From assembly GCA_965216315.1 (NCBI GenBank), contig CBDCFN010000015.1, positions 352,001 through 416,000 on the forward strand: a stretch of DNA of 64,000 nucleotides. Reading direction: 5' to 3'. Made by a program: the position numbers and the translations under genes. This stretch comes from a bacterium (GTDB lineage Bacteria > UBA10199 > 2-02-FULL-50-16 > JAJFLM01). Below, in pieces: positions 8,504 through 63,071 of this stretch. The notes under the pieces were generated by a model, which saw only the letters and a program-made list of their open reading frames with translations, was not told the origin of the DNA and did not search any database. Numbering within the stretch: position 1 is the stretch's first letter; each line of letters starts with the position of its first letter.

Positions 8504-9310
8504 ATGGTGTGGGTGGTGCAAACAGCAATGCAGGCGACGACAGTGCTCGCCAATGCGGCCGGAGCCGCGACGGTGATCAGCCCGCTGGCGCATGTGCCCC
8601 TGCAGGTACTCGATGAGGCCACGGAATCGTTGGCCGAGTCCGCCTTTAGCCTGACAAAACAACTCTCCTGTGAACTGAGCTATTGCGTGACCCAAACGGC
8701 CTGGGAGCCGGTGCCTCAAGCCGATTTTTCCCGTGCCCACAGTCGAGAGCTGGCACTGACGGGTGAAAGCCTCCATACGGGCAAACGCCGAAATGAGATC
8801 TTTTCCATCGGCCAGTACGCACGGCACCTGAGGCTTGACTGCTCGGATTCATTCATTGCAAATTGCCTCGGTCTGTTGGAGGCGAGCGCGCAACATTTGC
8901 TTCAGCTCGAGCGTTCGGACGCCGTATCGTTGGCGACTATTCTCCGGCGGCGGCTTCCCGATGCTCCAGAGCAAGCCATCCGCAGGGGGCCCGTTGATTT
9001 CTATGTCTTTAAGTGGGTGGATCAAGATAGTCCGCTGATCCTGGCGATCAAGGCCTTTATTGGGCTCAATATGGGCGAGCTGTGGCTCACGGAAGAGTGG
9101 CGCCTGATTAGGCAACGGCGTGAGGCTGTCCTGTTGGCGGATGCGGATCGCGACGTCGGTTTTGGCCTTTATGCGGGGCTGGGACTCTGGCTTGATCACC
9201 CGCAGTATTTGGACTTGTTAAGCGAACCAATGGCACATAGGTCTGGGTTCATCACCCCGCGGAAAGACAGTCTCCAGTTCAATGGGGATTCGTTTACCCT
9301 CACTAAATAA
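8504..9310 (+). CDS. Orphan hypothetical protein, paralog of 6136..6954
   Basis: Start set at ATG 8504 (MVWVVQTAMQATTVLA) by alignment with the paralog and promoter position. Confidence 0.72.
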   Translation: MVWVVQTAMQATTVLANAAGAATVISPLAHVPLQVLDEATESLAESAFSLTKQLSCELSYCVTQTAWEPVPQADFSRAHSRELALTGESLHTGKRRNEIFSIGQYARHLRLDCSDSFIANCLGLLEASAQHLLQLERSDAVSLATILRRRLPDAPEQAIRRGPVDFYVFKWVDQDSPLILAIKAFIGLNMGELWLTEEWRLIRQRREAVLLADADRDVGFGLYAGLGLWLDHPQYLDLLSEPMAHRSGFITPRKDSLQFNGDSFTLTK

Positions 9311-41512: not shown

Positions 41513-41576
41513 CCAATGGCTCGCAATCTACTTCTTGCGACAGCACGAGCCGCGCGTAGATTGTTTATCTCGTCCC

Positions 41577-41648
41577 TTGGTAGCCCTGCTGTCCCTTAAG
41601 GGACCAGAGGCTTTGCGTCCCTGCCTTACGGCAGGTTTGCCTTTTCAT
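41577..41648 (-). ncRNA. Cyclic di-GMP-I (GEMM) riboswitch
   Basis: Minus strand AAGGCAAACCTGCC-GTAA-GGCAGGGACGCAAAGCCTCTGGTC..GACAGCAGGGCTACC; GGCAAAC, GNRA loop and GGACGCAAA hallmarks. Confidence 0.88.
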
Positions 41649-41733
41649 GAACAGTCACGAAAAAATTTTTATTCAAAAAATATAATGACTATCCTCCGCT
41701 TAGCTTGTCTTTCATTCTTTATTCCAGAATGCT

Positions 41734-49638: not shown

Positions 49639-50268
49639 TTAATGCCCTTCTTCTCCTTCCTCAGAGGGCTCTTCAGTGCGATTCAAGTTAGGCTGATCTT
49701 CTCCCGTGCCACCATGCCAGTAGGTTGAACATCGTGTGACCGCGAAATCATCGGAAAGCCTATCGTTACGCAGAGAGTCGGGCCAACTCTGACACGCAAT
49801 GCAAACGGCTTGACGGGCTTCCGATAATTCTTGCTGCAAGACTTCGAGGGTGTGACTCCCTCCACGGCAGAGACGGTCTTTTTCGAGCCATTGCTGGTTG
49901 AGCCGCAAATACTCAGTCCAGAGTCGGTCCGATTCAGTGTGAATGAAGGCCGTGCATTCTGCGTTAGGTGCTCGTGAGGCGACTCTAATAAATCCATAGG
50001 ATTGCTGACGCACTGTCAGGCTCTCCTGTTCAAGCTGATCCGCTTCGTGACAAATTTGTTCTTTTTCATCGTGACGCCGTTTGGCTGACTGGTACTGTTG
50101 GGTGGCGAGGACGCAATTATCGAGCTGGAGCGGAGGTCGATTAGCGGCCGAAATGTCGATCACTTTTTTGCTGATGCCAAAATCGCGCAGGCTGATGGCA
50201 TGGCTACTTGATAGGGGCCAAATGAATGTCAGCCCGATGACGATAATAAAGAGTTTAATGATATTCAT
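49639..50268 (-). CDS. Secreted Cys-containing coiled-coil hypothetical protein
   Basis: Signal ..SSHA; GGAGG RBS. Confidence 0.72.
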   Translation of the reverse strand: MNIIKLFIIVIGLTFIWPLSSSHAISLRDFGISKKVIDISAANRPPLQLDNCVLATQQYQSAKRRHDEKEQICHEADQLEQESLTVRQQSYGFIRVASRAPNAECTAFIHTESDRLWTEYLRLNQQWLEKDRLCRGGSHTLEVLQQELSEARQAVCIACQSWPDSLRNDRLSDDFAVTRCSTYWHGGTGEDQPNLNRTEEPSEEGEEGH

Positions 50269-50279
50269 GGTAGCCTCCT

Positions 50280-50858
50280 TTACTCGGTACCCAGCGCACT
50301 TGTACGTAAGCAGACCGCATAGCGCGTGACTTCAAATTTCACAGGCGATGAGCTTGTTCCATCCAGCGCGTTGACCAGGGAAACAGCGATAGGCTTGCCG
50401 GTTTCCGGAGATGTAATCGTTCCAAAACCCGTCTTCATGCCTAAACGCTTCGTCGTGGCATTTTTAGTCTGCGAGGTGTCAGGCAGTGCCTGGAAGGCGA
50501 ACAGTTTGTCACCGCGCTTGCATTTAAGCGCAGGCGGATCATTGTAGCCGGGTTCCGGGTTATTGGAACTCTGAGCAAAGTTCCGATCATAGCAGTAGCG
50601 GTGAATATAAATCGAATCTTCCGGATAGTATGTCTTGGGACTTCCGCAATAAATAGACTGCACGTCCTTTCTCAAATAGATCATTTTGGGACTCGTCACC
50701 TTGACTGGATTGATAATGGATATTGCCTGGGTTGCCGATGGCGTTGAAGGTTCGACCCCTGTCGCTGGAATTTTTACATTGTAAAATTCGGCGAATGCGG
50801 GACCCGTAATCAGTGCTATCGCAATGACAAATGTGACCTTGCTCAGTGTCTTTCCCAT
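50280..50858 (-). CDS. Secreted hypothetical protein
   Basis: Signal ..PAFA; GGAGG RBS before ATG 50858. Confidence 0.72.
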   Translation of the reverse strand: MGKTLSKVTFVIAIALITGPAFAEFYNVKIPATGVEPSTPSATQAISIINPVKVTSPKMIYLRKDVQSIYCGSPKTYYPEDSIYIHRYCYDRNFAQSSNNPEPGYNDPPALKCKRGDKLFAFQALPDTSQTKNATTKRLGMKTGFGTITSPETGKPIAVSLVNALDGTSSSPVKFEVTRYAVCLRTSALGTE

Positions 50859-50886
50859 GGTAGCCTCCGTTCTGGCTATTAGGTCT

Positions 50887-50902
50887 TGCAAAACTTATGC
50901 CA
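50887..50902 (-). promoter_or_regulatory. sigma54 promoter
   Basis: Minus strand TGGCATAAGTTTTGCA. Confidence 0.7.
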
Positions 50903-51069
50903 TGATCACCGGACCATAAATTAAATAACTTATTGAAATTATTTAATAAATTTACTCTTCTTGTGCATGGCCCCATTATCATTCTGATAAAATTATCAAA
51001 TTGATAATATTTGTCGTTGGCCCGCTACGGAAAAAGTGAAGGAAATTGGCGAGTTAGCAAAACGGTGTT

Positions 51070-51085
51070 TGGCATAGATCATGCA
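51070..51085 (+). promoter_or_regulatory. sigma54 promoter
   Basis: TGGCATAGATCATGCA, GG-N10-GC. Confidence 0.62.
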
Positions 51086-51108
51086 AAGACGGCAGGGAGG
51101 AGGATGCG

Positions 51109-51486
51109 ATGCAACATATTAAGTGGGTCATGGCCGTAGCCATCTTGGGGTCCTGTTTCGTTATTAACGTCCCGTCCGGAGTTGAGGCGCGGTCCGATCT
51201 AGTCGTCGGGAGCGGTGAGCTGAGCGAGGCACAAAAACAAAAAGAGGTCTGCGGGAAGTTACGCGATGAGTGTAAGCAGAGCTGCAAGCGTAATTACGAC
51301 CACGAACTCAACCTCGCGCGTGAAGAGGCCAAGCGCGGTGCGATAGCCACGATCATCTTTGGGGAGTCTGCGGATCCCCAGGTGGAACTCGATGCCGCCC
51401 TGGAAAAATGTAAAGGCAATTGTGATGAGGATTTTACCTGTTGCCTCGAACAGCAGGATCCGCTGGGCTGCTTTTACGGGATCTAA
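51109..51486 (+). CDS. Small secreted Cys-rich hypothetical protein
   Basis: Signal peptide; C-x6-C-x3-C and C-x3-C-x5-CC patterns; GGAGG RBS. Confidence 0.75.
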   Translation: MQHIKWVMAVAILGSCFVINVPSGVEARSDLVVGSGELSEAQKQKEVCGKLRDECKQSCKRNYDHELNLAREEAKRGAIATIIFGESADPQVELDAALEKCKGNCDEDFTCCLEQQDPLGCFYGI

Positions 51487-51527: not shown

Positions 51528-52667
51528 TTAGAAACTTCGAACAAAACTGATTCGTGAAGTTATGGGCTTAAAGCCGAGCGTGCGATTTAGGCTGATCATA
51601 CCGGTATTGCTCGACTCATTAGCGACGAGGATAGTTGGAATTCCCTGTTCTTGTGCGTAGGCAATTGTTCGTACTTTGAGGGCGAGTGCAATTTGGCGGC
51701 GGCGGTAAGCCGATTTCACTCCGGTGAGGTGGCTCCAGGCATGTTGCATGACTGCGCGGCCGAGCAGACTGCTCGTGCCGATATAATTCCCTTCGTGAAG
51801 GGCGACAAAGTAGGCGTCGGGTGAGAAGCCTGGGCTTTGAAGAATAACCTTTGAAAAGCTCTCAAAACTCATCTTGAGCGTGCCCTCTGGAAAAGGAGCG
51901 TCACTCAAGAGTTCGTTTTCAAGGTCATAAAGCTTACGGTCGCGTTCCGGATCAGCTGCCAGCTCGCTCATCGATTTGATTTCTATTCCCTCGTTATTCA
52001 ATCGAGTCTCATGTTCTTGATAAGGCGCCAAATTAGCCAGAGCGACGGGCAAAGTCATGACGACGTCACGCATACGCTCTCGGAAACCGCGTTGTTTCAG
52101 AAAGGCGATTCCCGCCGACGATTCCTGGTTCAGAACGACGCGGATGGTTTGAGGATTGAGAACTTGCAGTGCCGTCATGATCGTGGAGAAAAGGCGACTT
52201 CCTATTCCGCGCTTTTGAAATTGCGGGTGAACAAAGATCTTTATTGTGTATTTGTCGGGATGATAAACGATATATGGCTGATCATATTCAGCAAAAGCGA
52301 TGATTTCACCCTCGTGCCTGACGACCCAGCGCTGAAGGCGGCAGCGAGGATCCCGACTCACATCAAAAAAACGGATTTCGTCAGCAGTGAGTGGACGTTC
52401 AGGATAAGCGATATTTTGAAGTACACTGATCGCAGGGGCGTCGATAGGGCGATAGAGTTGGAGCGGATAAGCCCGGTTTCGAACTGCCTGGATTGTGTTT
52501 GTGCGCTGAAAGGCGAGATTGCGTTGATGTTGGGTGGCCAGCAGCGTCGGAGGTCCCTCAAAATGAAAGCTGTCCAGGCGGCGATAAGGACACGCGGTTT
52601 CCACAGGCGGTAACAAGGCCGTCGTGATTCCGAAACCGCTGAGAGAAGTTAGCAGGGGTGAGCTCAT
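51528..52667 (-). CDS. Tandem GNAT acetyltransferase with S/T/L-rich leader
   Basis: VHPQFQKRGIG, TGVKSAYRRRQIA, N..M..LN..LGF; start at ATG 52667. Confidence 0.88.
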   Translation of the reverse strand: MSSPLLTSLSGFGITTALLPPVETACPYRRLDSFHFEGPPTLLATQHQRNLAFQRTNTIQAVRNRAYPLQLYRPIDAPAISVLQNIAYPERPLTADEIRFFDVSRDPRCRLQRWVVRHEGEIIAFAEYDQPYIVYHPDKYTIKIFVHPQFQKRGIGSRLFSTIMTALQVLNPQTIRVVLNQESSAGIAFLKQRGFRERMRDVVMTLPVALANLAPYQEHETRLNNEGIEIKSMSELAADPERDRKLYDLENELLSDAPFPEGTLKMSFESFSKVILQSPGFSPDAYFVALHEGNYIGTSSLLGRAVMQHAWSHLTGVKSAYRRRQIALALKVRTIAYAQEQGIPTILVANESSNTGMISLNRTLGFKPITSRISFVRSF

Positions 52668-52676
52668 CGTGATGCC

Positions 52677-52702
52677 GTATCGGCTGTTGAAACACAATGT
52701 TG
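52677..52702 (-). promoter_or_regulatory. sigma28-like promoter motif copy 9 (CAAC-N14-GCCGATAC)
   Basis: 9 nt upstream of ATG 52667. Confidence 0.65.
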
Positions 52703-52793
52703 CTGAGGCAGAATGACAAGTGTTTACGGGAGTATACGCAGGATTCTCTTTCATTGTAGTTAAGGTAGTGGCGTGGCATAATACAAAAAATAC

Positions 52794-54374
52794 ATGCCGA
52801 AGCTCTGTTTGATTAATCCACCGACCACGACCTCAACGGAGGAGATTTATTTTCCGATGGCCTTAGTGGCCTTGGGCTCGATGTTGAAGGCCGGTCAAAT
52901 ACCTTTTGAACTTATCGATTTTGACCTGGAACTTCAGAACAAGCCGCTCTTGTCGCAATGGCACTATTTTAAAGATTATGCCCTTCGCAGGCTTAAGAAA
53001 ACCGATACGAGGTGTTTCGGGATTTCGAGCATTTGTTCCAACTACCCCGTGTCTCTCTTGCTCGCGAAGGCCATCAAAGAGCGCTGGCCGCGCAGTTGTA
53101 TCATCCTAGGGGGTCCTCAGCCGTCAGCGGTGCCGGAAGAAACCTTGCGGCTCTGCCCCTGGGTCGATGTCATTGTTATTGGTGAGGGAGAATGGACCTG
53201 CGTTGAACTGATGAAAAGTGATTTGAGCGCTGAATCACTGCGTACAATTGCGGGAATTGTCTTTAGGGATGGCGATGAAATTGTGCGAACCGAACGGCGC
53301 CCCTTGATAGAAGACTTGGATACGCTTCCTTTTCCAGATTATAGCTTGGTTCCGCTCAAGGAATATCTGCCGATCACGAATCACGTCGATTTGATTGAGG
53401 CTGGCCGGGGGTGCCCTTTTCTTTGTTCGTTTTGTTCGACGGCCTTAATGTGGGAACGCAAGTTCCGGGTGAAATCTCCGGCGCGCATTCTCGAAGAAAT
53501 GCGCCGGCTCAACGCGGATTACGGTTTGGTTTCGTTCGGGTTGACCCACGACAATTTTACGACCTCGCACCGTCATGTGGCGGCGTTCTGCGAGTACTTT
53601 CGTACGCATAATCACGAACAATTTATCTGGTCAGCCAGTGCGAGGAGTGACACGCTGAACCCGGAACGTATACAGGCCTTGTATGATGCGGGCTGTCGCG
53701 GGCTATTTTTTGGAGTCGATTCCGGTTCAGTCCGCATGCAAAAGGTCATGAAAAAGCAGCTCAACCTTGCGCAATTCAAGGAGCATCACAATATATCGAG
53801 TCATCTCGGTATGTCGTCGATTACGTCGCTGATACTTGGGTTTCCTGAAGAAACAGCGGAGGATGTGGATGCGACGATTCGCTTAGGACTTTGGGCCAAG
53901 CTCAACGGTTCTTCAACGGTCCAGTTTCATCGCTTATCAGTCTTGCCGAGCACGGCCCTCTCCAAGCAGCATCACGGTGCCCTGTTTTTTGATACGCAAA
54001 AGACCTCGTGGGATTTTGACAGGCAATCGCATGAGAGCCGTGAGATCGATCGCCAGATTCGTAAGAGCCCGGAGCTTTTTTCAACCTTTTATACTTTGCC
54101 AACACCTTTGCTCGGATCGATAAACATCGAAGCGTTAGCCTTTTTCTACCATGAACTCGTCAATTTTATGGCCCCGACGCTTGACCATATCTTTATGGTT
54201 ACAGGCTGGAGCACCGTCGAATTGTTTGAATGCTGGTTGCGGTGGAAGGAAAACTACTATCCGAAACGGCGGGTGAGCGGGCCTTTTATTTTTAATACTT
54301 TTGCGGAATTTGTTCGTAAGGAGGTCACACGGAGCGAAGGAAATGGATTCAATATTCAACAGGAGGCGTTATGA
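52794..54374 (+). CDS. Cobalamin-binding radical SAM enzyme
   Basis: GGP, GEGE, RGCPFLCSFC, DNFT, GFPEET. Confidence 0.92.
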   Translation: MPKLCLINPPTTTSTEEIYFPMALVALGSMLKAGQIPFELIDFDLELQNKPLLSQWHYFKDYALRRLKKTDTRCFGISSICSNYPVSLLLAKAIKERWPRSCIILGGPQPSAVPEETLRLCPWVDVIVIGEGEWTCVELMKSDLSAESLRTIAGIVFRDGDEIVRTERRPLIEDLDTLPFPDYSLVPLKEYLPITNHVDLIEAGRGCPFLCSFCSTALMWERKFRVKSPARILEEMRRLNADYGLVSFGLTHDNFTTSHRHVAAFCEYFRTHNHEQFIWSASARSDTLNPERIQALYDAGCRGLFFGVDSGSVRMQKVMKKQLNLAQFKEHHNISSHLGMSSITSLILGFPEETAEDVDATIRLGLWAKLNGSSTVQFHRLSVLPSTALSKQHHGALFFDTQKTSWDFDRQSHESREIDRQIRKSPELFSTFYTLPTPLLGSINIEALAFFYHELVNFMAPTLDHIFMVTGWSTVELFECWLRWKENYYPKRRVSGPFIFNTFAEFVRKEVTRSEGNGFNIQQEAL

Positions 54375-54880
54375 TTAAGCGAGTGAAAACGAAGGTCTTT
54401 TCCATATTTTCCATCTTAACCGGTTTTCTTATGGGAACGGCGACACAGGCAAAAGCGGCGGATATTTTCTATAAGCCCGCTGCCAAAGCGGATTCGAATG
54501 CTTCAAGGGGTGCGCCGACCATGACCGAGCATGGAGCCCCGATCATGACGGAGCACGGCGCGCCAACTTACCGGGCACTTGGTGCGCCGACCATGACCGA
54601 GCATGGAGCCCCGATCATGACGGAGCACGGTGCGCCAACTTACCGGGCACTTGGTGCGCCGACCATGACGGAGCATGGAGCTCCGACCATGACGGAACAC
54701 GGTGCGCCAATGGTCACTGACTTAGGGCGGACGGAAAGCATACGAGACAGTAATGACGAGGTCGTTGATGTCCCAGCGGAGACGAAGGTTCTTCTGGATA
54801 CCAAAATTCTCCTCGAACGCTTGAGAGGCATTGAAAGTTCTCTTGAGCGGCTGGAGCAAAAAATCGAGCGAGAAAAGTGA
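54371..54880 (+). CDS. Candidate RiPP precursor: signal-like N-terminus, 9 GAPxxxxx octapeptide repeats, C-terminal coiled coil
   Basis: GGAGG RBS; 4-nt overlap with the upstream rSAM gene; repeats GAPTMTEH/GAPIMTEH/GAPTYRAL. Confidence 0.7.
   Translation: MIKRVKTKVFSIFSILTGFLMGTATQAKAADIFYKPAAKADSNASRGAPTMTEHGAPIMTEHGAPTYRALGAPTMTEHGAPIMTEHGAPTYRALGAPTMTEHGAPTMTEHGAPMVTDLGRTESIRDSNDEVVDVPAETKVLLDTKILLERLRGIESSLERLEQKIEREK
54509..54724 (+). repeat. 9 x 24-bp coding tandem repeat
   Basis: Units start GGT/GGA GCG/GCC/GCT CCG/CCA; 72-bp higher-order duplication. Confidence 0.92.
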
Positions 54881-54888
54881 GGAATAGA

Positions 54889-55053
54889 ATGATTAAAGAT
54901 CAAGAAGTTAGAAATGAAGAGCGAAGGATGGATGCCGAACGCGAGATTACACAGTATGCGATTCTTCAAGCCCTTGATGCGATTGAAAAGCGAATTGCAG
55001 CTCTCGAGTCTCGGCTAGAGATGAGAGATGGCGCCCAGAATACTAGTCCTTAA
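54889..55053 (+). CDS. 54-aa coiled-coil protein similar to the precursor C-terminus
   Basis: Manual translation MIKDQEVRNEERRMDAEREITQYAILQALDAIEKRIAALESRLEMRDGAQNTSP; GAGGA RBS. Confidence 0.6.
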   Translation: MIKDQEVRNEERRMDAEREITQYAILQALDAIEKRIAALESRLEMRDGAQNTSP

Positions 55054-56527
55054 TCCGCCCAGCCCCGGCCGCGCGTACCTGAATCGTGATCTCATGGGTG
55101 GCATGGGAGTTCATAACCCGAGGGGCAAGAGCCTGCGGGCGAAACTCTTATTTAAGCTCAAAGGCACGACAATTCACATGCCCGTCATGCAGCTGGTGTA
55201 TGGTGCCACCTTGCTCAAACGAGAGGGCTTTGACGTTCGTGTGATCGATGCCGTGAATGAAGGTCTTCATTTGACGGATGTGCTCAAAAAGGCCGATGAC
55301 TTTGCACCGGACGTGATTTTAATGGCGACGAGCAGCGCCGGTTTTAGGTTTGAACGTGATGAAGTGGCGCGTGGCCTGAAGTCGCTGTGTCCAGAGGTCA
55401 AGATCATTGTCGTCGGTGACATGGTGACGGCCCTGCCGGAACAATTGTTGCCCTGGTTTGACGTGGCGGTCATGGGGGAGGTGGAACAGGCGGTCGTGTC
55501 ACTCTGCCACGGCGATGATTATGAAACAATTCCATCGATCATCTGGCGTGAGGGAGATCGGGTGCATCAGAGTTCGCGCGGTAAGTCGTTTCTGGCGGTT
55601 CGAACACTGGAGACACTGCCGTTCCCGGATTGGAGTCTCTTTCCCTATACGCATTATTCCTATTACCCGCAGCTCAGCCAGGCGCCGGTTGCGTTGATTC
55701 AGGCCTCGCGAGGCTGTCCTTACGAATGTGGTTATTGTCCCTATCCGTCGAATCAGGGGCGGCAATGGCGGGCCCGCAGCGCGGAAAACGTCTATGCCGA
55801 GATTCAGTGGGATCTTGAATTTGGATTCAATGCTTTTTTCTTTCGAGACCCGCTTTTCACGGCGGATCAGGAGCGTGTGGAGGCCTTGTGCGATCTGATC
55901 TTGGGGGATGGCGTCAAGATAGAGTTCGTTTTTGAGACACGGCCTGAACTTTTGACGCGTCCCGGTTTGATCGAGAAGCTAGCGCGTGCGGGATGCCAGG
56001 CGATCAACTTTGGAGTTGAAGACGTTCATCCAGAAATTCTGCGCTCGATTAACCGTCGGCCCGTACCACTCGACCAGATTCGAGCGACGTTGCGCGCCTG
56101 CGAGACGAGTGGGATCAAAACGACCTGTTTCTATATTTTAGGTCTTCCGGGGGCGACAAAAGAGTCGATGAAAGAGACGATCCAATTCAGCCGCGAAGTT
56201 CTGAGTCATTTCGTCGAGTATAAAGTTGCAACGCCGTTTCCCGGCACTTCTCTTTATCACCTTGCAAAGTTGAATGGTTGGATGAAGCGTGAGGGCTTCG
56301 ACCAGCTTGGGGGTTACAGCGCAGCGATGCGCGTATCCGATGAATACGATGAGGGTTATTTAGAGGGCTTAGCGGAGCGTAGTGCCATCGAGTATTACTT
56401 CCATCCACGCTATCTCTATCGTTTTATCCGGCGGGGCGAATTGTTCAAGCTTTTTAAAGTCTATGCTAAGACTCACTTTCAGAGACCGATGCAGTCTCTG
56501 AAGCTCGCGCACGAGCGGTCTCCGTAA
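55028..56527 (+). CDS. Cobalamin-binding radical SAM enzyme
   Basis: LNPP, SRGCPYECGYC, FRDPLF, ETRPE, GLPG, TPFPGT. Confidence 0.92.
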   Translation: MAPRILVLNPPSPGRAYLNRDLMGGMGVHNPRGKSLRAKLLFKLKGTTIHMPVMQLVYGATLLKREGFDVRVIDAVNEGLHLTDVLKKADDFAPDVILMATSSAGFRFERDEVARGLKSLCPEVKIIVVGDMVTALPEQLLPWFDVAVMGEVEQAVVSLCHGDDYETIPSIIWREGDRVHQSSRGKSFLAVRTLETLPFPDWSLFPYTHYSYYPQLSQAPVALIQASRGCPYECGYCPYPSNQGRQWRARSAENVYAEIQWDLEFGFNAFFFRDPLFTADQERVEALCDLILGDGVKIEFVFETRPELLTRPGLIEKLARAGCQAINFGVEDVHPEILRSINRRPVPLDQIRATLRACETSGIKTTCFYILGLPGATKESMKETIQFSREVLSHFVEYKVATPFPGTSLYHLAKLNGWMKREGFDQLGGYSAAMRVSDEYDEGYLEGLAERSAIEYYFHPRYLYRFIRRGELFKLFKVYAKTHFQRPMQSLKLAHERSP

Positions 56528-57221
56528 AGCGCAGGGGTTTGAAGCGATAGAGTAGAATGCACCACAGGGCCTTAAATCCATCCGTTACGCCGATTTTTTT
56601 GCCGTCTTCGTAAGTGCGGCCGTGATAAGCAATGCCGACTTCATATATCCGTGCCTTTAACCGGGCCATCTTACAGGTTATTTCTGGTTCGATCCCGAAG
56701 CGGTCTTCTTCAAGGACGAGCGACTGAATCAACTCGCGACGAAAAATTTTATAACAGGTCTCGATATCGGAGAGGTTGAGGTCGGTGAGGATGTTGCAGA
56801 ACGAAGTAATTACCTTGTTGCCGATATAATGCCAAAACATCAGGGCGCGATGCGCTTGATCGGAAAAAAAACGAGAGCCGTACACGACATCGGCGCGGTC
56901 TTGCTCAAGCGGTTCAAGTAGTTTGGCATAGTCGTTCGGATCGTATTCTAAATCAGCGTCCTGAACGATCACATACTGACCGCGCGCGAGGCGAAAACCG
57001 GTGCGGATCGCTTTGCCTTTGCCGTAGTTGCGCGCGAGGCGAATCACGCGCGTGTTAGTCGATTTGGCTTCGATCTGGCACAGGTGTTCGGGCGTGCGAT
57101 CCGTTGACCCGTCATCAACGATGATCAATTCTTTGTCAATGTCGACGCGCTGCACCTTTTCGACGATCTCACGTATAGTATCTTGTTCGTTATAAACGGG
57201 AATAATGACGGATAGTTTCAC
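56466..57221 (-). CDS. GT2 glycosyltransferase (polyprenol-phosphate sugar synthase-like)
   Basis: [27 protein letters not shown]. Confidence 0.93.
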
Positions 57222-58171
57222 AGCTTACCTGCCAAGAGATCGTCGTAGTATTGAATGGTTCGTTTCAGGCCATCTTCGAGAGTGACCTTGGGATGCCAGT
57301 CGAGTTGGGCCTGCGCCAGGCTAATGTCAGGGCAGCGTTGCGTCGGGTCGTCTTCCGGCAAAGGTTCAAAGACAAGTGCCGATTGAGAGCCCGTGAGATC
57401 CAAGATCAATTGAGCGAGATCGAGTACGCTTATTTCTTGGGGATTACCAAGGTTGACCGGACCAACGAAATCATCATCGCTGTGCATCAATCGGATGAGG
57501 GCATCTATCAAGTCCGTAACGTAACAGAAAGAACGTGTTTGTTCGCCTTTGCCAAAGATCGTGATTGATTCGGCTTTGAGGGCCTGCACGATGAAATTCG
57601 AAACGACGCGGCCGTCATTGAGACTCATGCGAGGACCATAGGTATTAAAGATGCGCGCGACTTTTATCGGTAGCTGGTATTGCCGGTGGTAATCGAAGAA
57701 CAGCGTTTCCGCGCAGCGCTTGCCTTCATCGTAGCAAGCCCTCACGCTGATGGGATTGACATGGCCCCAATAGGACTCATTCTGGGGATGTTCATCGGGG
57801 TCACCGTAAACTTCACTCGTTGAGGCCTGCAATATCTTCGCGTTGAGTCGCTTTGACAAGCCCAGCATGTTGATCGCTCCGTGAACACTAGTCTTTGTCG
57901 TCTGTACCGGACTGCGCTGGTAGTGAGTTGGGGCTGCGGGACAGGCGAGGTTGTAGATCTCGTCGATTTCGACATAGAGAGGGAAACAGATGTCGTGACG
58001 CATCAATTCGAAGTAAGGGTTCGCGATGAGAGTTGCAATATTTCGCTTTGCTCCCGTAAAGAAATTATCAACACAAAGGACTTCGTGACCATCCCGGAGA
58101 AGTTGCTCACACAGATAAGATCCAAGAAAACCGGCGCCCCCGGTGACGAGTATTCGCTTGCTCTGTTTCAT
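57218..58171 (-). CDS. uxs: UDP-glucuronate decarboxylase (UDP-xylose synthase)
   Basis: [39 protein letters not shown]. Confidence 0.93.
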
Positions 58172-58902
58172 TACCGTATCCGCTTGAAAATTCCTTCAGG
58201 AATGAGTTTAGCGGATTTTGCGATCAACCACCAAAACTTTGGGACGTAAATGCTGTTTTTTTTGCGCTGGATGGCCTTGTAAATGCCTTTCCCGACCCTC
58301 TCCGCGCTCGCAAACAGCGGATTCTTGTTTCGCTCTGCGGTCATGGGCGTGTCGACGTAGCCCGGCTTGATCGTGAGCACATGAACGCCCTCGCGATAAA
58401 GCCTCTTTCTCAAGCCCTCTAAATAAGTGGTCAGTGCCGCCTTTGCGGAGGCGTAGATGTAATTATAACGGAGTCCGCGATCACCGGCGACCGACGTGAT
58501 GACGGCGATTGTGCCGCTACCCTGTGCGCTCAGCCTGTTGGCGAGCGTGGTGAGTAACGAGACGGCACTCAGATAGTTGGTATGGATCTCTTGCTCCGCA
58601 ATGCGAAAGTCACTTTCAGAACGCAATTGATTTCCATAGGAGCCATGGGCGATCAATACCGTGTCAAGCTGCGGGAAGGTCGTAAAAACTTCATTGATGA
58701 GACTTTTATGGCGGTTGAATTCATTTAAATCAGCGATGGCTGTTACGACCGATGCTCCGCGGTCGCGAAGATCCCCAGCGACCTGATTCAATTTATCCGG
58801 GTTACGCGCGATCAAATACAGGGTATCCCCTCGGGCGGCGAAATGTTTGGCGACTTCGTGGGCTATTTTGGAGGTGGCTCCGAGGATGAGACGTGTCGCC
58901 AT
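58171..58902 (-). CDS. SDR oxidoreductase, DprE2-like
   Basis: [30 protein letters not shown]. Confidence 0.85.
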
Positions 58903-58914
58903 AAAAGTATAGTA

Positions 58915-60624
58915 TCAAGGCGTACTCGGTACGGGCAAGAACCAAAGCGCGCGATTAGCGCCATAAACCGCGGTCAAAAAACGCGCGCCACGGTGCTGTC
59001 CCTCGGGCCACTGGGTTCCGCTGATGATGAGAGGTGTCGTGGGAATAAGGTTTTGACTCATTGAAAAGAGGTGAATCTTGGACTCTGGCAATAGAAAGTG
59101 CAATCCTGTTATGAAGGCCGTGCGTCCGGGATAGACGGATGGGGCGTCGACATCAAAGTTGATGTGAGCGGCATAGGGGCCCAGTTCTCGGATCGAAGCG
59201 GCAATCTGGAAATGCCGGGCGAGGTAGTGTCCTTTGGAAAGGATGCGGCGATAGGCATGAGCCGTGCTCAATACGAAGGCCATAGAGACCAGAATGAGTC
59301 CCATCGCATAGGCGCGCTTCGTACTAAGTGCGAGCGTGAACCAGATTCCACAGACGACGAGGGTGCCGACGGCAAAACTCAAACTCGTGGTTCCGTATAA
59401 ATACCATGGTCCTAAGCCAAATAGACTCGAGCCTGGATCATGAACAGCTGGGAACACCTGTACGCCGCGAATTGCATAGAGCAGCGCTGTTATGGCAACG
59501 ATGATCAATGGTACCAGCAAGACTTTTCGCCAGCTACGCGGTTTCATTTCGGTGTAGAGCCCCAACAACGCAATTGCAATAAAGACCGCGATGAAACCTT
59601 CATTATAGCGTCCATAAATAAAATTGACCCATTCCGGGATGATTAAGATGCGCCCGGCCAAGTGTAGATTGGCGGTGAAGAACATGCCCGTGCTGGTAGT
59701 CAGTAGAAATAAGAGGGTATGTGACTCGCTATTGCGAAAGCAGCCTAGCGCTGTTTGTTGTCCGGCCTTCCATAGCGTGCGGATCAGAAAGAAAATCCCG
59801 AAGAGAAAGAGGCCGTAGGTGGCGACGGTCAGGTACCACGTCTGCCCCAGGGCTTCGATGAAGAATTCCCACCAGCCGCTAAGTGTCGATAAAGTTACGA
59901 ATAAATCAGTGACCGAATGTCGAATTGCTCCGACTGCGAAAGCGACGTGCTCATTGATCCATTCGACCATGAAATACCCTCCGAGCAGACAGCTGCACCC
60001 GAGTCCTCCGGTCCAGAGAGAAAGGCGTCGTATAAACATGAGGATAATCAGATGAAGGAAACTCAAGATAATGACGGGAAAGGCCTTGCCATGGGCGGCA
60101 TAGAGCAGGGGCACGATGAGTCCGAAGAGCAGAACCCAACGAATGTTGCCGCGGATGCACAATCGCCAAAAGGTGATGATAGCGCCGGTGTACAAAGGAA
60201 TGAAGAGGTTTTCTGAAAGGGCAAACTGAGCATTGATGATAAAGGCGGGATAGAGTGCCGTGACAAAGGCGATCGCAGCGGCCAACTTAAGCGGCGCTTT
60301 CAGAATGCGATGGATGAGTACCAAGAGAGAAAAATAAATGGTACTCAACAGGCTGGCATTGAATAACAATACGGCTTTGTAGGCCTGCAGTGGATCCGTG
60401 AAAATCCAGAGAAAGGGCGCAATGAGGGCGGGGTAAAGGGAGGGCCTTAGGTATTGACCGGTAAGGTCCGGGATGATGCCAGAGCCGGCAAAGTAGCGCG
60501 CTGTTACCAGGAACGAAAATTCATCTGGAACGACGCTGGGAAACCGGACTTTTAAGCTGAGCGCTGCATGGAACGCGACGAGGGCGAGATACGGGATACA
60601 GTACCAAAGGCGGGACTTAGACAT
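58915..60624 (-). CDS. Polytopic membrane protein, probable GT-C glycosyltransferase
   Basis: PDE after TM1, YP..IAP, SENL, YGRY; many TM segments. Confidence 0.65.
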   Translation of the reverse strand: MSKSRLWYCIPYLALVAFHAALSLKVRFPSVVPDEFSFLVTARYFAGSGIIPDLTGQYLRPSLYPALIAPFLWIFTDPLQAYKAVLLFNASLLSTIYFSLLVLIHRILKAPLKLAAAIAFVTALYPAFIINAQFALSENLFIPLYTGAIITFWRLCIRGNIRWVLLFGLIVPLLYAAHGKAFPVIILSFLHLIILMFIRRLSLWTGGLGCSCLLGGYFMVEWINEHVAFAVGAIRHSVTDLFVTLSTLSGWWEFFIEALGQTWYLTVATYGLFLFGIFFLIRTLWKAGQQTALGCFRNSESHTLLFLLTTSTGMFFTANLHLAGRILIIPEWVNFIYGRYNEGFIAVFIAIALLGLYTEMKPRSWRKVLLVPLIIVAITALLYAIRGVQVFPAVHDPGSSLFGLGPWYLYGTTSLSFAVGTLVVCGIWFTLALSTKRAYAMGLILVSMAFVLSTAHAYRRILSKGHYLARHFQIAASIRELGPYAAHINFDVDAPSVYPGRTAFITGLHFLLPESKIHLFSMSQNLIPTTPLIISGTQWPEGQHRGARFLTAVYGANRALWFLPVPSTP

Positions 60625-61517: not shown

Positions 61518-63071
61518 TCAAACGGGGCTGACTCCATGTTTTTTTGGTAACTGCTGAACCTGTTTATTGGCCGTCAACTCCAACGCCTCCCATAGGACCT
61601 TGCGCGTATCCCGCGGATCGATGACCTCGTCGATGTAATGTCCCGCCGCCGCCTGCTCGACGGAGATACGTTTGGCATATTCCTCGACCAGTTTCTTGCG
61701 CACCTCTTCGCCGCCTTTTTCGATCTCCTTGCGGAAGATAATATTGACCGCGCCTTCTGCGCCCATTAAGGAGATCTCCGCTGAAGGCCAGGCATAGACG
61801 CGATCGGCTCCGAAGGAGCGCCCGCACATCGCGTAGTAACCCGCGCCGTACGCCTTGCGGATCACGACGGTTAGTTTGGGAACACTGGCGCGGCTAACCG
61901 CGTACAGAAGCTTGGCGCCATGCCGAATGATGCCGGCCTTTTCGACCTTGCTGCCGACCATGAAACCGGGAACGTCTTGTAAAAAGATCAACGGGATGTT
62001 GAAGGCATCGCAGAGGTTGATGAAACGGGCGCCCTTGTCGGCCGAATCGTTATCGAGGATGCCGCCTGCGACCTGGGGTTGGCTCGCGACGATGCCGACC
62101 GGGTGACCGCCGAGACGGGCAAAGCTCGTGATCAGCGTCGGGCCGAACGCGGGTTTCAGCTCCAGCAGCGAGCCACTGTCCGCAATAAGCTTGAGGATGT
62201 CGCGCATGTCGTAGGGTTGACGCGAGTTGTCGGGGAGAATGTTCAAAATTTCATCCGAGATCAACTGGCCTTTTTCTTCGGTTTCAATCTCTTGTCGCGG
62301 GGGTGTTTCCCCACTGTGCGCAGGAAAGTAACTTAAATATTTTCGGATGGTACGGATGCAGTCTTCGTCATCCGACGCTTCGTAATCGGCGACCCCGGAG
62401 ACTTCACAGTGGACGGTCGACCCGCCAAGGTCTTCGACGCTGACTTCTTCGCCGGTGACCGCCTTGACGAGCGGGGGGCCCGCGAGGGCCATCGACGAGG
62501 TCCCCGCGACCATCGGAATAAAGTCACACAAGGCGGGGATGTAGGCCGTGCCGGCGGCACAGGGTCCCATCACCGCGGCAACGGTCGGGATGACCCCGCT
62601 CATTTGGATCAACTCGTAAAATACCGAACCGCTCTCGGCGAAATGCGAGCCGGCGACCTCTTGGATGCGTGCGCCGGCAGAGTCGACCAACCAGATCAAG
62701 GGCACACGTTCCTGCACCGCCATCTGGCGGATGCGCGTCGATTTGCGTTCGTTGACCTCACCGATCGTGCCCGCCATCACGGTAAAATCGTAGGCGATGA
62801 CGTAGGCCTTGCGGCCGTTGATCGTGCCGTGTCCCGCGACCATGCCGTCGGCGGGAGTTGCCTTGTCCTTCATGTCGGGATGATAGGATTGATGGTGATC
62901 GAGGGAGCCCTGCTCGACGAAGCTCCCTTCGTCAAAAAGTTTGGCGATGCGTTCACGCGCGGTGAGTTTGCTGTCGAGGTGCTGCTTGCGCACCGCCTCC
63001 TTGCCGCCCATCTCGCGTGCCTTGGCTTGCAGCGCACTGATGTGATCGCTTTGGTCTTTAAGTTTCCCCAT
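61518..63071 (-). CDS. Acyl-CoA carboxylase carboxyltransferase (beta) subunit
   Basis: KLTARERI, DSAGARIQE, DVPGFMVG, RKAYGAG. Confidence 0.95.
   Translation of the reverse strand: MGKLKDQSDHISALQAKAREMGGKEAVRKQHLDSKLTARERIAKLFDEGSFVEQGSLDHHQSYHPDMKDKATPADGMVAGHGTINGRKAYVIAYDFTVMAGTIGEVNERKSTRIRQMAVQERVPLIWLVDSAGARIQEVAGSHFAESGSVFYELIQMSGVIPTVAAVMGPCAAGTAYIPALCDFIPMVAGTSSMALAGPPLVKAVTGEEVSVEDLGGSTVHCEVSGVADYEASDDEDCIRTIRKYLSYFPAHSGETPPRQEIETEEKGQLISDEILNILPDNSRQPYDMRDILKLIADSGSLLELKPAFGPTLITSFARLGGHPVGIVASQPQVAGGILDNDSADKGARFINLCDAFNIPLIFLQDVPGFMVGSKVEKAGIIRHGAKLLYAVSRASVPKLTVVIRKAYGAGYYAMCGRSFGADRVYAWPSAEISLMGAEGAVNIIFRKEIEKGGEEVRKKLVEEYAKRISVEQAAAGHYIDEVIDPRDTRKVLWEALELTANKQVQQLPKKHGVSPV

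Follow-up and report, generated by a model that had tools for sequence, protein, structure and literature searches.

The bufferins derive from a signal-peptide precursor that a cytoplasmic metalloenzyme (MNIO) edits, after which the product is exported by the general pathway and the signal is cleaved (PMC11626156), and the DAG-RiPPs (RiPP, ribosomally synthesised and post-translationally modified peptide) are described as MNIO-modified precursors with general-pathway signal peptides (PMC13056109). In the HXS system, HxsB and HxsC, which are radical S-adenosylmethionine (rSAM) enzymes, mature the His-Xaa-Ser repeat effector HxsA in the cytoplasm, and the effector acts in the periplasm (PMC13128918); in TvgA/TvgB (poly-cyclopropylglycine), an rSAM enzyme modifies one residue per TVGG copy (PMC9062424). 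The cobalamin rSAM enzyme ApyD, described as 'RRE-containing' with no position given for that domain, is a Tyr C-beta-methyltransferase that acts on a ribosomal peptide (PMC10635010). These papers are drawn on in part, and the statements attributed to them here and below apply to those parts. The present study concerns an operon at positions 52794..56527 of a 64,000-nucleotide stretch of DNA (the window) from a bacterium of the phylum UBA10199, which encodes a class B (cobalamin-type) rSAM enzyme (rSAM1), a 169-aa repeat protein with a signal-like N-terminus, a 54-aa protein (p54) and a second rSAM enzyme with a B12-binding domain (rSAM2). A B12-type rSAM enzyme that modifies peptides or proteins very probably has the repeat protein as its partner and, as far as can be read from sequence, the locus suggests a hitherto undescribed route by which exported proteins are edited. 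A full-text literature search (UBA10199 radical SAM; B12-rSAM with repeat precursors; subscription-only papers lie outside it) showed no published account of such a locus among the papers listed.

Pairing of rSAM1 with a signal-peptide repeat protein

An earlier reading of the letters of the window (hereafter the original prediction) had proposed a tight operon in which an octapeptide-repeat precursor and a 54-aa protein lie between two B12-dependent rSAM enzymes, and the open reading frames (ORFs) and their junctions bear out this gene order. The rSAM1 gene and the repeat-protein gene share a 4-nt ATGA overlap, an 8-nt gap follows, and p54 and rSAM2 overlap by 26 nt, so that the four genes are read as one translationally coupled operon. 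The p54 gene starts either at an ATG at 54889 with GAGGAA 7 nt upstream (54 aa) or at a GTG at 54877 (58 aa). Rfam at gathering thresholds gave nothing in or near the operon, promoter and terminator scans performed no better than shuffles (6 vs 7.2 and 9 vs 8.3, respectively), and no RNA dataset is among the 5 public runs listed for the locus. As the original prediction had remarked, no protease or transporter adjoins the operon: a Pfam scan of 12 ORFs in the window found neither family.

The 169-aa protein opens with a signal-like region (residues 1-29, nt 54371-54457) of net charge +4 with a hydrophobic stretch followed by A-K-A, in agreement with what had been predicted. Signal-peptide calls in this study come from our own heuristic rather than SignalP, and require a positive n-region, a 12-residue hydrophobic maximum >1.6 and a small-x-small site. 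The octapeptide array is exactly as originally listed: nine 8-residue GAP units fill residues 47-118 (nt 54509-54724) in the order (GAPTMTEH-GAPIMTEH-GAPTYRAL) twice, GAPTMTEH twice and GAPMVTDL, with Met-Thr-Glu-His present in six of the nine. Tandem Repeats Finder recovers the array with a score of 369, as 2.8 copies of a 72-bp unit (96% matches), and the protein itself scores 40.5 for self-repetition, where none of 200 shuffles exceeds 5. The C-terminal tail, read from the sequence, is Leu/Glu-rich and helix-like, a putative 'leucine zipper'. Logan contigs from four public runs of one study contain the locus with no indels and a single C>T at 54559 in one low-depth contig; none of them spans 54538-54640, every one being interrupted within the array, and the figure of nine units therefore derives from the source assembly alone.

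No Pfam or NCBIfam model matches the 169-aa protein, a word-indexed search of 5.8 billion proteins returned only the protein itself, and the ESM Atlas gave no usable match; judged by sequence, it is a new family. Relatives were sought in 93 genomes, a class set that is identical with the whole phylum in the genome set used (the genome of the window is G000). A six-frame search of these genomes found one convincing homologue, in G037 (E 3.7e-11), and weaker matches in G004, G019 and G081 (E 3.7e-4 to 7.9e-3). The G037 homologue lies directly after an rSAM1 orthologue that is 58% identical to that of the window, and it has a similar N-terminus, seven 10-residue GAPTPT[KAT]TEY units and no helical tail. 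As these units lack Met and His, the metal-binding theme that the original prediction had entertained is not a conserved one. The G037-type repeat protein occurs in two lengths, 149 aa with seven units (locus L027 in G037, 8628-9077) and 119 aa with four units (P0175), and the three-unit difference is either true copy-number variation or repeat collapse in one of the assemblies. A metagenome scan with four proteins of our group I matched 486 pattern stretches, none of which was confirmed.

Both enzymes have the domain order of the B12 type, as predicted, namely an N-terminal B12-binding (Rossmann-like) domain ahead of a radical SAM core, and pass the Pfam gathering scores for both domains. For rSAM1, the B12-binding domain (PF02310) scored 47.9 bits (cut-off 32.1) and the radical SAM domain (PF04055) 72.5 bits, and the cysteines of its CxxxCxxC motif (C207, C211 and C214), which ligates the [4Fe-4S] cluster in such enzymes, are invariant in alignments of 7, 5 and 34 sequences. 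AprD4 has a B12-binding domain and is not known to use cobalamin, and the presence of this domain is therefore no proof of cobalamin use by rSAM1 or rSAM2. The best NCBIfam match of rSAM1 is ApyD (NF050148), at 266 bits over the B12 and rSAM core, a score that does not reach the cut-off of 750; the match ends at position 436 of 645, leaving model positions 437-645 unmatched. BchE (second), HpnJ (third) and a RiPP C-methyltransferase subfamily follow. In the AF2 model of rSAM1 (pLDDT 91), residues 445-511 form a three-helix bundle without beta strands, and no RRE domain is apparent. The best Foldseek matches of the model are TsrM, the protein glutamine methylase MgmA, AprD4, CysS, TokK and OxsB, and the modelled fold thus matches that of cobalamin rSAM methylases. 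The nearest relatives of rSAM1 outside UBA10199 (31-37% identical, 550-750 aa) adjoin short precursor-like ORFs, one of which is Nif11-leader-like by eye, with no family scan behind that label, and by this adjacency rSAM1 falls in a peptide-modifying region of the superfamily, where C-methylation is the most frequent outcome. A complex prediction from the rSAM1 and partner-protein alignments scored 0.00, a value that counts neither for nor against binding.

Relatives of rSAM1 were gathered by scanning genome and metagenome contigs with rSAM1 alignments and then listing the ORFs around each match. A quick maximum-likelihood tree was inferred from 35 sequences, comprising the window, the 20 matches that reached 38% identity across 450 residues or more and the first 14 from a further 54 at greater distance, with the partial genes L044, L045 and L063 excluded. 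The UBA10199 sequences form a single clade of 21 rows (support 100), which is confined to this uncultured phylum; the metagenome-assembled genomes (MAGs) concerned often carry the label 'Deltaproteobacteria bacterium'. Fourteen of the 21 rows lie directly beside a gene for a 130-240-aa signal-peptide protein. Pairing is complete in one subclade (10/10) and holds for four of the five rows of the subclade that includes the window, where G037 is sister to the window (support 97) and L012, the sister of both, is unpaired; the six rows of a third group have no partner and stand in polyketide/fatty-acid-like or HMGL-like neighbourhoods. Among 14 metagenome loci (L112-L125, 40-54% identity), seven are paired, five show no partner in the available sequence and two lie at contig edges. 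Apart from the pairs, the neighbourhoods are unrelated (with e.g. methionine sulfoxide reductase or ketopantoate hydroxymethyltransferase), which leaves rSAM1 together with the signal-peptide protein as the conserved unit. The original prediction had treated the two rSAM genes as the unit, which did not hold, since rSAM2 has no orthologue elsewhere in the phylum's 93 genomes. It had also named the lack of repeat peptides beside homologous rSAM genes as a result that would count against it, and homologues of rSAM1 do adjoin repeat proteins. No protease or exporter was found by Pfam in 35 selected neighbour ORFs of nine related loci (L011-L019), and inspection by eye of the ORF lists of the further paired loci showed none either.

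Two observations on the clade stand apart from the pairing. In the unpaired subclade, clusters at L014 (12894-13895) and L033 (2009-2425) contain HMGL-like genes, further B12-type rSAM genes and one or two ~140-aa proteins, which may be a different substrate type: their hydrophobic N-terminal stretch is rich in Ala and Val, their middle is charged and helical, and their tail is acidic with Tyr and Asp. At L128 (781-1539), an rSAM1-like ORF of 56% identity starts at query residue 179, right after two small minus-strand ORFs, and may be a truncated copy.

The partner proteins share a build of signal-like N-terminus, hypervariable middle rich in Pro, Thr, Ser and Ala and, in most members, helix-like tail, whereas their tandem units differ completely between genomes (GILAAPATQx, SSGLNQAPAPN, SGQWNAPVP, AGSLMAPAP, TKGWLTAEHA, NIERPS, TFPPE[AG]RY, APAWPSQGMEI, GIRAMFPDPP, SDRNVAG and one 25-residue unit). 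Searched against 1.84 billion representatives, a family profile built from 18 partner proteins finds 54 proteins of 103-240 aa (E<=1e-3), of which 49 reach E<=1e-10. By our heuristic, 51 of the 54, including that of the window, have a signal-like N-terminus, and tandem repeats score above all 100 shuffles in 27. Ala-Pro occurs in the units of all ten group-I proteins, with enrichment over shuffles in eight, and no conserved cleavage motif was seen by eye between units. Applied to the 93 genomes, the profile marks 19 places in 14 genomes from five families of the phylum; an rSAM1-family gene adjoins 15 of these, and three weaker places have none within ~3.5 kb (18 of the 19 neighbourhoods were inspected). 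One of the profile matches is at G010:C66. With the proteins of the window and of G037 (L027) left out, the profile still ranks the window protein first of 862 frames (E 2.2e-4).

Two members of the family deserve separate mention. The partner gene at L043 (6112-6956; the same gene in L015 and G005) has 18-residue DSGRAFKQPSEGSSTQSV-type units with a run of N inside, and it appears as two ORFs because the assembly failed within the repeats. An orphan 103-aa ORF at L203 (3541-3852; G010:C45) combines a family-type N-terminus with an unrelated basic tail and has no rSAM1-family gene within ~3.5 kb. It lies ~0.9 kb from a homologue of an acyl-CoA carboxyltransferase whose copy in the window (61518-63071) is ~5 kb from the cluster described here, and may be left over from an ancestral site.

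The convergent glycan operon and rSAM2

Four minus-strand genes at 56466..60624 converge with the operon (Table 1). By the predicted roles of their products, they would supply a polyprenyl-phosphate-pentose donor pathway and a periplasm-facing transferase. The best solved relatives of the GT2 glycosyltransferase are dolichol-P-mannose synthase (5mlz), ArnC and the GtrB-type sll0501, and its tail is longer than that of the G037 counterpart. The UDP-glucuronate decarboxylase (UDP-xylose synthase, UXS) matches human UXS1 (4gll/2b69) with E 7e-120 and 403 bits over residues 2-310, the next family scoring 130 bits. The short-chain dehydrogenase reaches 280 bits against NCBIfam PRK07102 (cut-off 267) and 171 bits against DprE2 (below its cut-off of 250), and its sole PDB match at E<=1e-15 is DprE2 (21gq, 2.4e-25), a polyprenyl-P-2-keto-pentose reductase. 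The membrane protein gave no Pfam or NCBIfam match at E<=0.01, which places it outside named families such as GT39 and GT83, and it has just 11 homologues among the 5.8 billion proteins. An AF2 model built from the alignment of these homologues (pLDDT 82, pTM 0.86) returned 31 best Foldseek matches, all of them GT-C enzymes, with ArnT (5f15) at the top (E 6e-8, TM 0.53/0.56), followed by ALG12, STT3/PglB/AglB, AftA/AftD, Pmt4 and Emb; its ESM Atlas neighbours are RgtA-D-like and GT39/PMT_2, which we treat only as a lead. A D-E/DxD motif in the first outward-facing loop is the catalytic signature of GT-C enzymes, and D34-E35 is invariant in the 11 homologues.

Table 1 Genes of the rSAM operon and of the convergent glycan operon in the window
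Feature	Position	Strand	Basis
rSAM1 (526 aa), radical SAM enzyme of class B (cobalamin-type)	52794..54374	+	Pfam B12-binding and Radical_SAM
169-aa repeat pre-protein	54371..54880	+	ORF, tandem repeats, signal-like start
p54, charged helix-like 54-aa protein	54889..55053	+	ORF and ribosome-binding site
rSAM2, second B12-binding-domain radical SAM enzyme, 499 aa	55028..56527	+	Pfam
GT2 glycosyltransferase, polyprenyl-phosphate-sugar synthase type, 251 aa	56466..57221	-	Pfam Glycos_transf_2
UDP-glucuronate decarboxylase (UDP-xylose synthase, UXS), 317 aa	57218..58171	-	phmmer vs PDB
Short-chain dehydrogenase nearest DprE2, 243 aa	58171..58902	-	NCBIfam, PDB
Polytopic membrane protein, predicted GT-C-fold architecture, 569 aa	58915..60624	-	AF2 model and Foldseek

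The GT-C gene is present in only two of the 93 genomes, G000 and G037, and the same two hold the GAP-repeat protein. In G037, the cluster runs rSAM (494 aa), GT-C (586 aa, 44% identical to that of the window), UXS, GT2, rSAM (505 aa) and rSAM (431 aa), and it is convergent with the rSAM1-then-repeat-protein pair, just as the glycan operon is in the window; the reductase is absent. Extra rSAM genes thus occur in either operon, with rSAM2 beside the repeat gene in the window and three such genes within the glycan operon of G037.

The B12-binding domain of rSAM2 scored 45.3 bits (PF02310, cut-off 32.1) and its radical SAM domain 82.7 bits (PF04055), and a CxxxCxxC motif is read from the sequence at residues 229-236. 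Its NCBIfam matches to HpnJ (181 bits), AprD4 (140 bits) and ApyD (108 bits against a cut-off of 750) are below cut-off, and its best PDB match is AprD4 (6fd2, E 1.7e-34); both AprD4 and HpnJ act on sugars. At E<=1e-70, rSAM2 is found in one of the 93 genomes, and the best match in the other 92 is 32% identical and not an orthologue. Homologues elsewhere are 59-65% identical and, with 487-494 aa for the closest, ~10 residues shorter, and the few named ones come from Woesearchaeota and Nanoarchaeota MAGs. On this distribution, rSAM2 is foreign to the phylum. By analogy with the AprD4/AprD3 pair, the analogue for sugar deoxygenation, rSAM2 and the DprE2-like reductase, both found in this genome only, may deoxygenate or otherwise tailor the sugar. 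The p54 protein has no match in Pfam, NCBIfam or PADLOC and no counterpart in the G037 locus. The idea that it is a free-standing copy of the family's C-terminal helix was unsupported (E 4.5 among 862 frames with a C-terminal-module profile), and the same profile also fails to retrieve the window protein's own tail.

Several features of the window lie beside these genes or apart from them. The rSAM2 gene and the convergent GT2 gene share 62 nt at their 3' ends (56466-56527). The upstream flank (49639-51486) holds three small ORFs with signal-like N-termini and no Pfam family, namely two of 209 aa and 203 aa on the minus strand and a Cys-rich one of 125 aa on the plus strand, and these adjoin a gene for a two-domain GNAT protein at 51528-52754 (minus strand). 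A c-di-GMP-I-GGC riboswitch aptamer at 41575-41650 (minus strand; RF03167, 68.4 bits against a gathering score of 59) is unrelated to the operon.

Competing readings of the locus

The reading that we favour, and to which we give about an even chance of being correct, is that the pre-protein is edited by rSAM1 while still in the cytoplasm, with C-methylation near Ala-Pro as the probable reaction, and that Sec export follows and, in the subtype of the window, probable pentosylation of Thr. In a first step, rSAM1 would modify the unfolded pre-protein once in each repeat unit by radical chemistry, and the likeliest change is a C-methylation on or beside the unit's Ala-Pro. This dipeptide is our best guess for the recognised or modified site because it is the only element common to the units of all ten group-I proteins. 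The product would then be exported by Sec and cut by signal peptidase after A-K-A (residue 29), and would stay in one piece in the periplasm or at the surface, as a protein-sized product with repeats and a helical tail rather than as excised peptides. A product that stays whole and leaves by Sec would account for the lack of a dedicated protease or exporter at the locus. In this genome and G037, the Thr-rich GAP repeats would probably be O-pentosylated outside the membrane, with UXS making UDP-xylose, the GT2 enzyme loading the pentose on polyprenyl phosphate and the GT-C protein transferring it. This step is proposed because the repeat protein and the GT-C enzyme co-occur in the same two of 93 genomes, adjoin each other and come with extra rSAM genes in either operon. 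The mycobacterial PMT mannosylates Thr in Ala/Pro/Thr-rich stretches of Sec-exported proteins. Finally, rSAM2, perhaps with the DprE2-like reductase, would tailor the sugar or add a second peptide modification. The substrate role of the repeat protein, the chemistry and its site, export, glycosylation and the role of rSAM2 are all inferred from synteny and precedent.

A number of points weigh against this proposal. Everything said of modification comes from genomic comparison, and no modification has been observed. B12-type rSAM enzymes catalyse much besides methylation, and with BchE and HpnJ as its second and third NCBIfam matches, methylation by rSAM1 is not a given. Pairing is not obligatory, since seven of the 21 clade members (L012, L030-L034 and L046) have no partner, and 27 of the 54 family proteins have no repeats, so that the repeats may not be the modified element. 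The kinship of the window protein to the wider family is weak: a profile from group II alone gives it E 0.18, and it is chiefly over the signal region that it matches the family profile, which could reflect generic signal-peptide composition. Enzyme phylogeny and common architecture are therefore the main grounds for its membership. The glycan link comes from two genomes, which could share one transferred island, and lipid A and glycans are likewise targets of GT-C enzymes with this fold, of which ArnT is the top match.

Among the alternatives, a classic multi-core RiPP, in which an N-terminal leader precedes repeats that are each a core and unlinked proteases free many small modified peptides, is unlikely in our view. 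Fungal signal-peptide multi-core precursors are the model for this explanation, as is the TvgA proposal. It would fit the identical or near-identical units, the short precursor-like ORFs beside the wider rSAM clade and the G037 homologue without a C-terminal helix, and the published action of TvgB on every TVGG repeat of TvgA is a parallel (PMC9062424). As for size, the gene is adjacent to that of rSAM1 and translationally coupled to it, but the protein has 169 aa (103-240 aa across the family) and most members have a helical tail. The multi-core explanation is opposed by the Sec-type N-terminus of nearly all members, this tail, the half of the family that lacks repeats, the lack by eye of a conserved cleavage motif between units and the lack of a protease or exporter in the Pfam-scanned window ORFs, in the selected L011-L019 ORFs and, by eye, elsewhere. 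The original prediction had proposed a new family with multiple modified cores, of which the new family without a Pfam or NCBIfam model and the very probable partnership with a modifying B12-type rSAM enzyme stand. The excised cores are not supported: with a Sec-type signal, a retained C-terminal helix and half of the members without repeats, the product looks like a modified exported protein and not like a source of many peptides.

We consider it improbable that the rSAM enzymes as a group belong to the glycan pathway and tailor a pentose in polyprenyl-linked or nucleotide form, with the repeat protein as no more than acceptor or bystander. That the enzymes might serve the neighbouring glycan genes had been raised at the outset, and this is borne out for the subtype of the window to the extent that the GT-C/UXS/GT2 module is adjacent to the pair in both genomes and co-occurs only with the GAP-repeat protein, that rSAM2 is nearest to the sugar-acting AprD4 and HpnJ, and that three further rSAM genes stand inside the glycan operon of G037. 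It does not extend to rSAM1, around which no glycan genes were seen at 13 of the 15 genome places with a pair or at the seven paired metagenome loci; because most pairs stand without glycan genes nearby, rSAM1 is tied to the protein and not to sugars. For rSAM2 alone, a role in the glycan pathway is plausible.

We judge it very unlikely that the two genes of the pair have no enzyme-substrate relation and that the rSAM gene is merely accompanied by that of an unmodified envelope protein, such as a scaffold or a regulator. Modification is not directly evidenced, conservation outside the signal region is weak and seven clade members manage without the protein, all of which would suit such an arrangement, but the 4-nt overlap in the window couples the two genes translationally, their adjacency recurs at 15 of 19 places in five families and varied contexts, and where an enzyme gene and one for a low-complexity protein form a module, the simplest account is that of enzyme plus substrate. 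Met and His are typical soft-metal ligands, and the Met-Thr-Glu-His of six of the nine units might suggest an exported metal-binding (e.g. copper) repeat protein that has no need of the neighbouring enzymes, but the Met- and His-free units of the closest homologue, the unrelated units of other members, middle regions with 2.0% Met, 1.5% His and 0% Cys, and the absence of any metal-homeostasis family among the 12 scanned neighbour ORFs make this highly improbable.

A bolder extension of the favoured reading, in which rSAM1 edits the exported protein before Sec export, holds that UBA10199 possesses a class of Sec-exported, RiPP-like envelope proteins whose repeats are edited unit by unit by a dedicated B12-type rSAM enzyme, and that in the GAP-repeat subtype a private polyprenyl-P-pentose/GT-C pathway acts on the same repeats; at its boldest, it posits O2-independent hydroxylation or another activation at Ala-Pro, followed by pentosylation. 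We regard this full version as quite unlikely. Plants have Hyp-O-arabinosylated repeats of the extensin/arabinogalactan type, and hydroxylation with pentosylation, if true, would be an anaerobic bacterial counterpart of them. The exclusive co-occurrence with a rare GT-C enzyme suggests a dedicated bacterial route of protein O-pentosylation. If the proposal is right, ~50 natural enzyme/substrate pairs with different repeat units would be available for deriving substrate rules, and a first handle would be gained on the envelope biology of UBA10199, of which we know of no cultured member.

Relation to known systems

The minus-strand genes resemble the Arn (ArnA-ArnC-ArnT), Ppm1-PMT and DprE2 pathways in their decarboxylase, GT2, DprE2-like reductase and ArnT-like GT-C components. 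Unlike in those pathways, the GT-C protein belongs to no Pfam or NCBIfam model and has few homologues, and the scanned neighbour ORFs showed neither a DprE1-type oxidase nor genes of the ArnB/ArnD type. PADLOC gave only a weak generic rSAM match (PDC-M51A, ~51 bits for both enzymes), and no phage-defence link was found.

Of the systems that modify peptides or proteins, ApyD (aminopyruvatide) is the best curated match of rSAM1, with which it shares a cobalamin radical SAM core; unlike ApyD, rSAM1 ends in a three-helix bundle and lacks a match to the C-terminal part of that enzyme. The substrates also differ, as ApyA is a short peptide modified once at its C-terminal GYLYD (PMC10635010) and the protein considered here bears a signal and repeats. 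The proposed modification of every unit follows the per-repeat logic of TvgAB, whereas TvgB comes from a multi-[4Fe-4S]-cluster rSAM subfamily and the tvg cluster contains a peptidase/transporter and an oxidase (PMC9062424). No Sec signal is described for tvg in the parts of that source used here (PMC9062424), and there is no sequence relation between tvg and this locus.

Like HXS, as far as its account is drawn on, the locus joins a repeat protein, two rSAM genes and a small extra protein in one operon; unlike HXS, it has no HxS units and no peptidoglycan-binding domain, and its enzymes carry B12-binding domains. No Hxs family is among the best 25 of 31 and the best 25 of 30 NCBIfam matches. 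With the bufferins and DAG-RiPPs, whose precursors have signal peptides of the Sec or lipoprotein kind, and within the parts of their accounts used, the locus would share editing in the cytoplasm, general export, the lack of a dedicated exporter or protease and products that can be protein-sized, all of which are proposed here. It differs from them in using a B12-type rSAM enzyme rather than an MNIO and in its middle regions devoid of Cys, the residue that is their target, and they have neither tandem hypervariable repeats nor a glycan module. If the favoured reading is correct, cobalamin radical SAM chemistry would join the MNIO-based bufferins and DAG-RiPPs and the HXS system in rewriting signal-peptide proteins before general export. 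By these analogies, the locus would combine edit-then-export of the bufferin and HXS type, the per-repeat logic of TvgAB and an ApyD-like class B rSAM enzyme, and it belongs to none of these systems.

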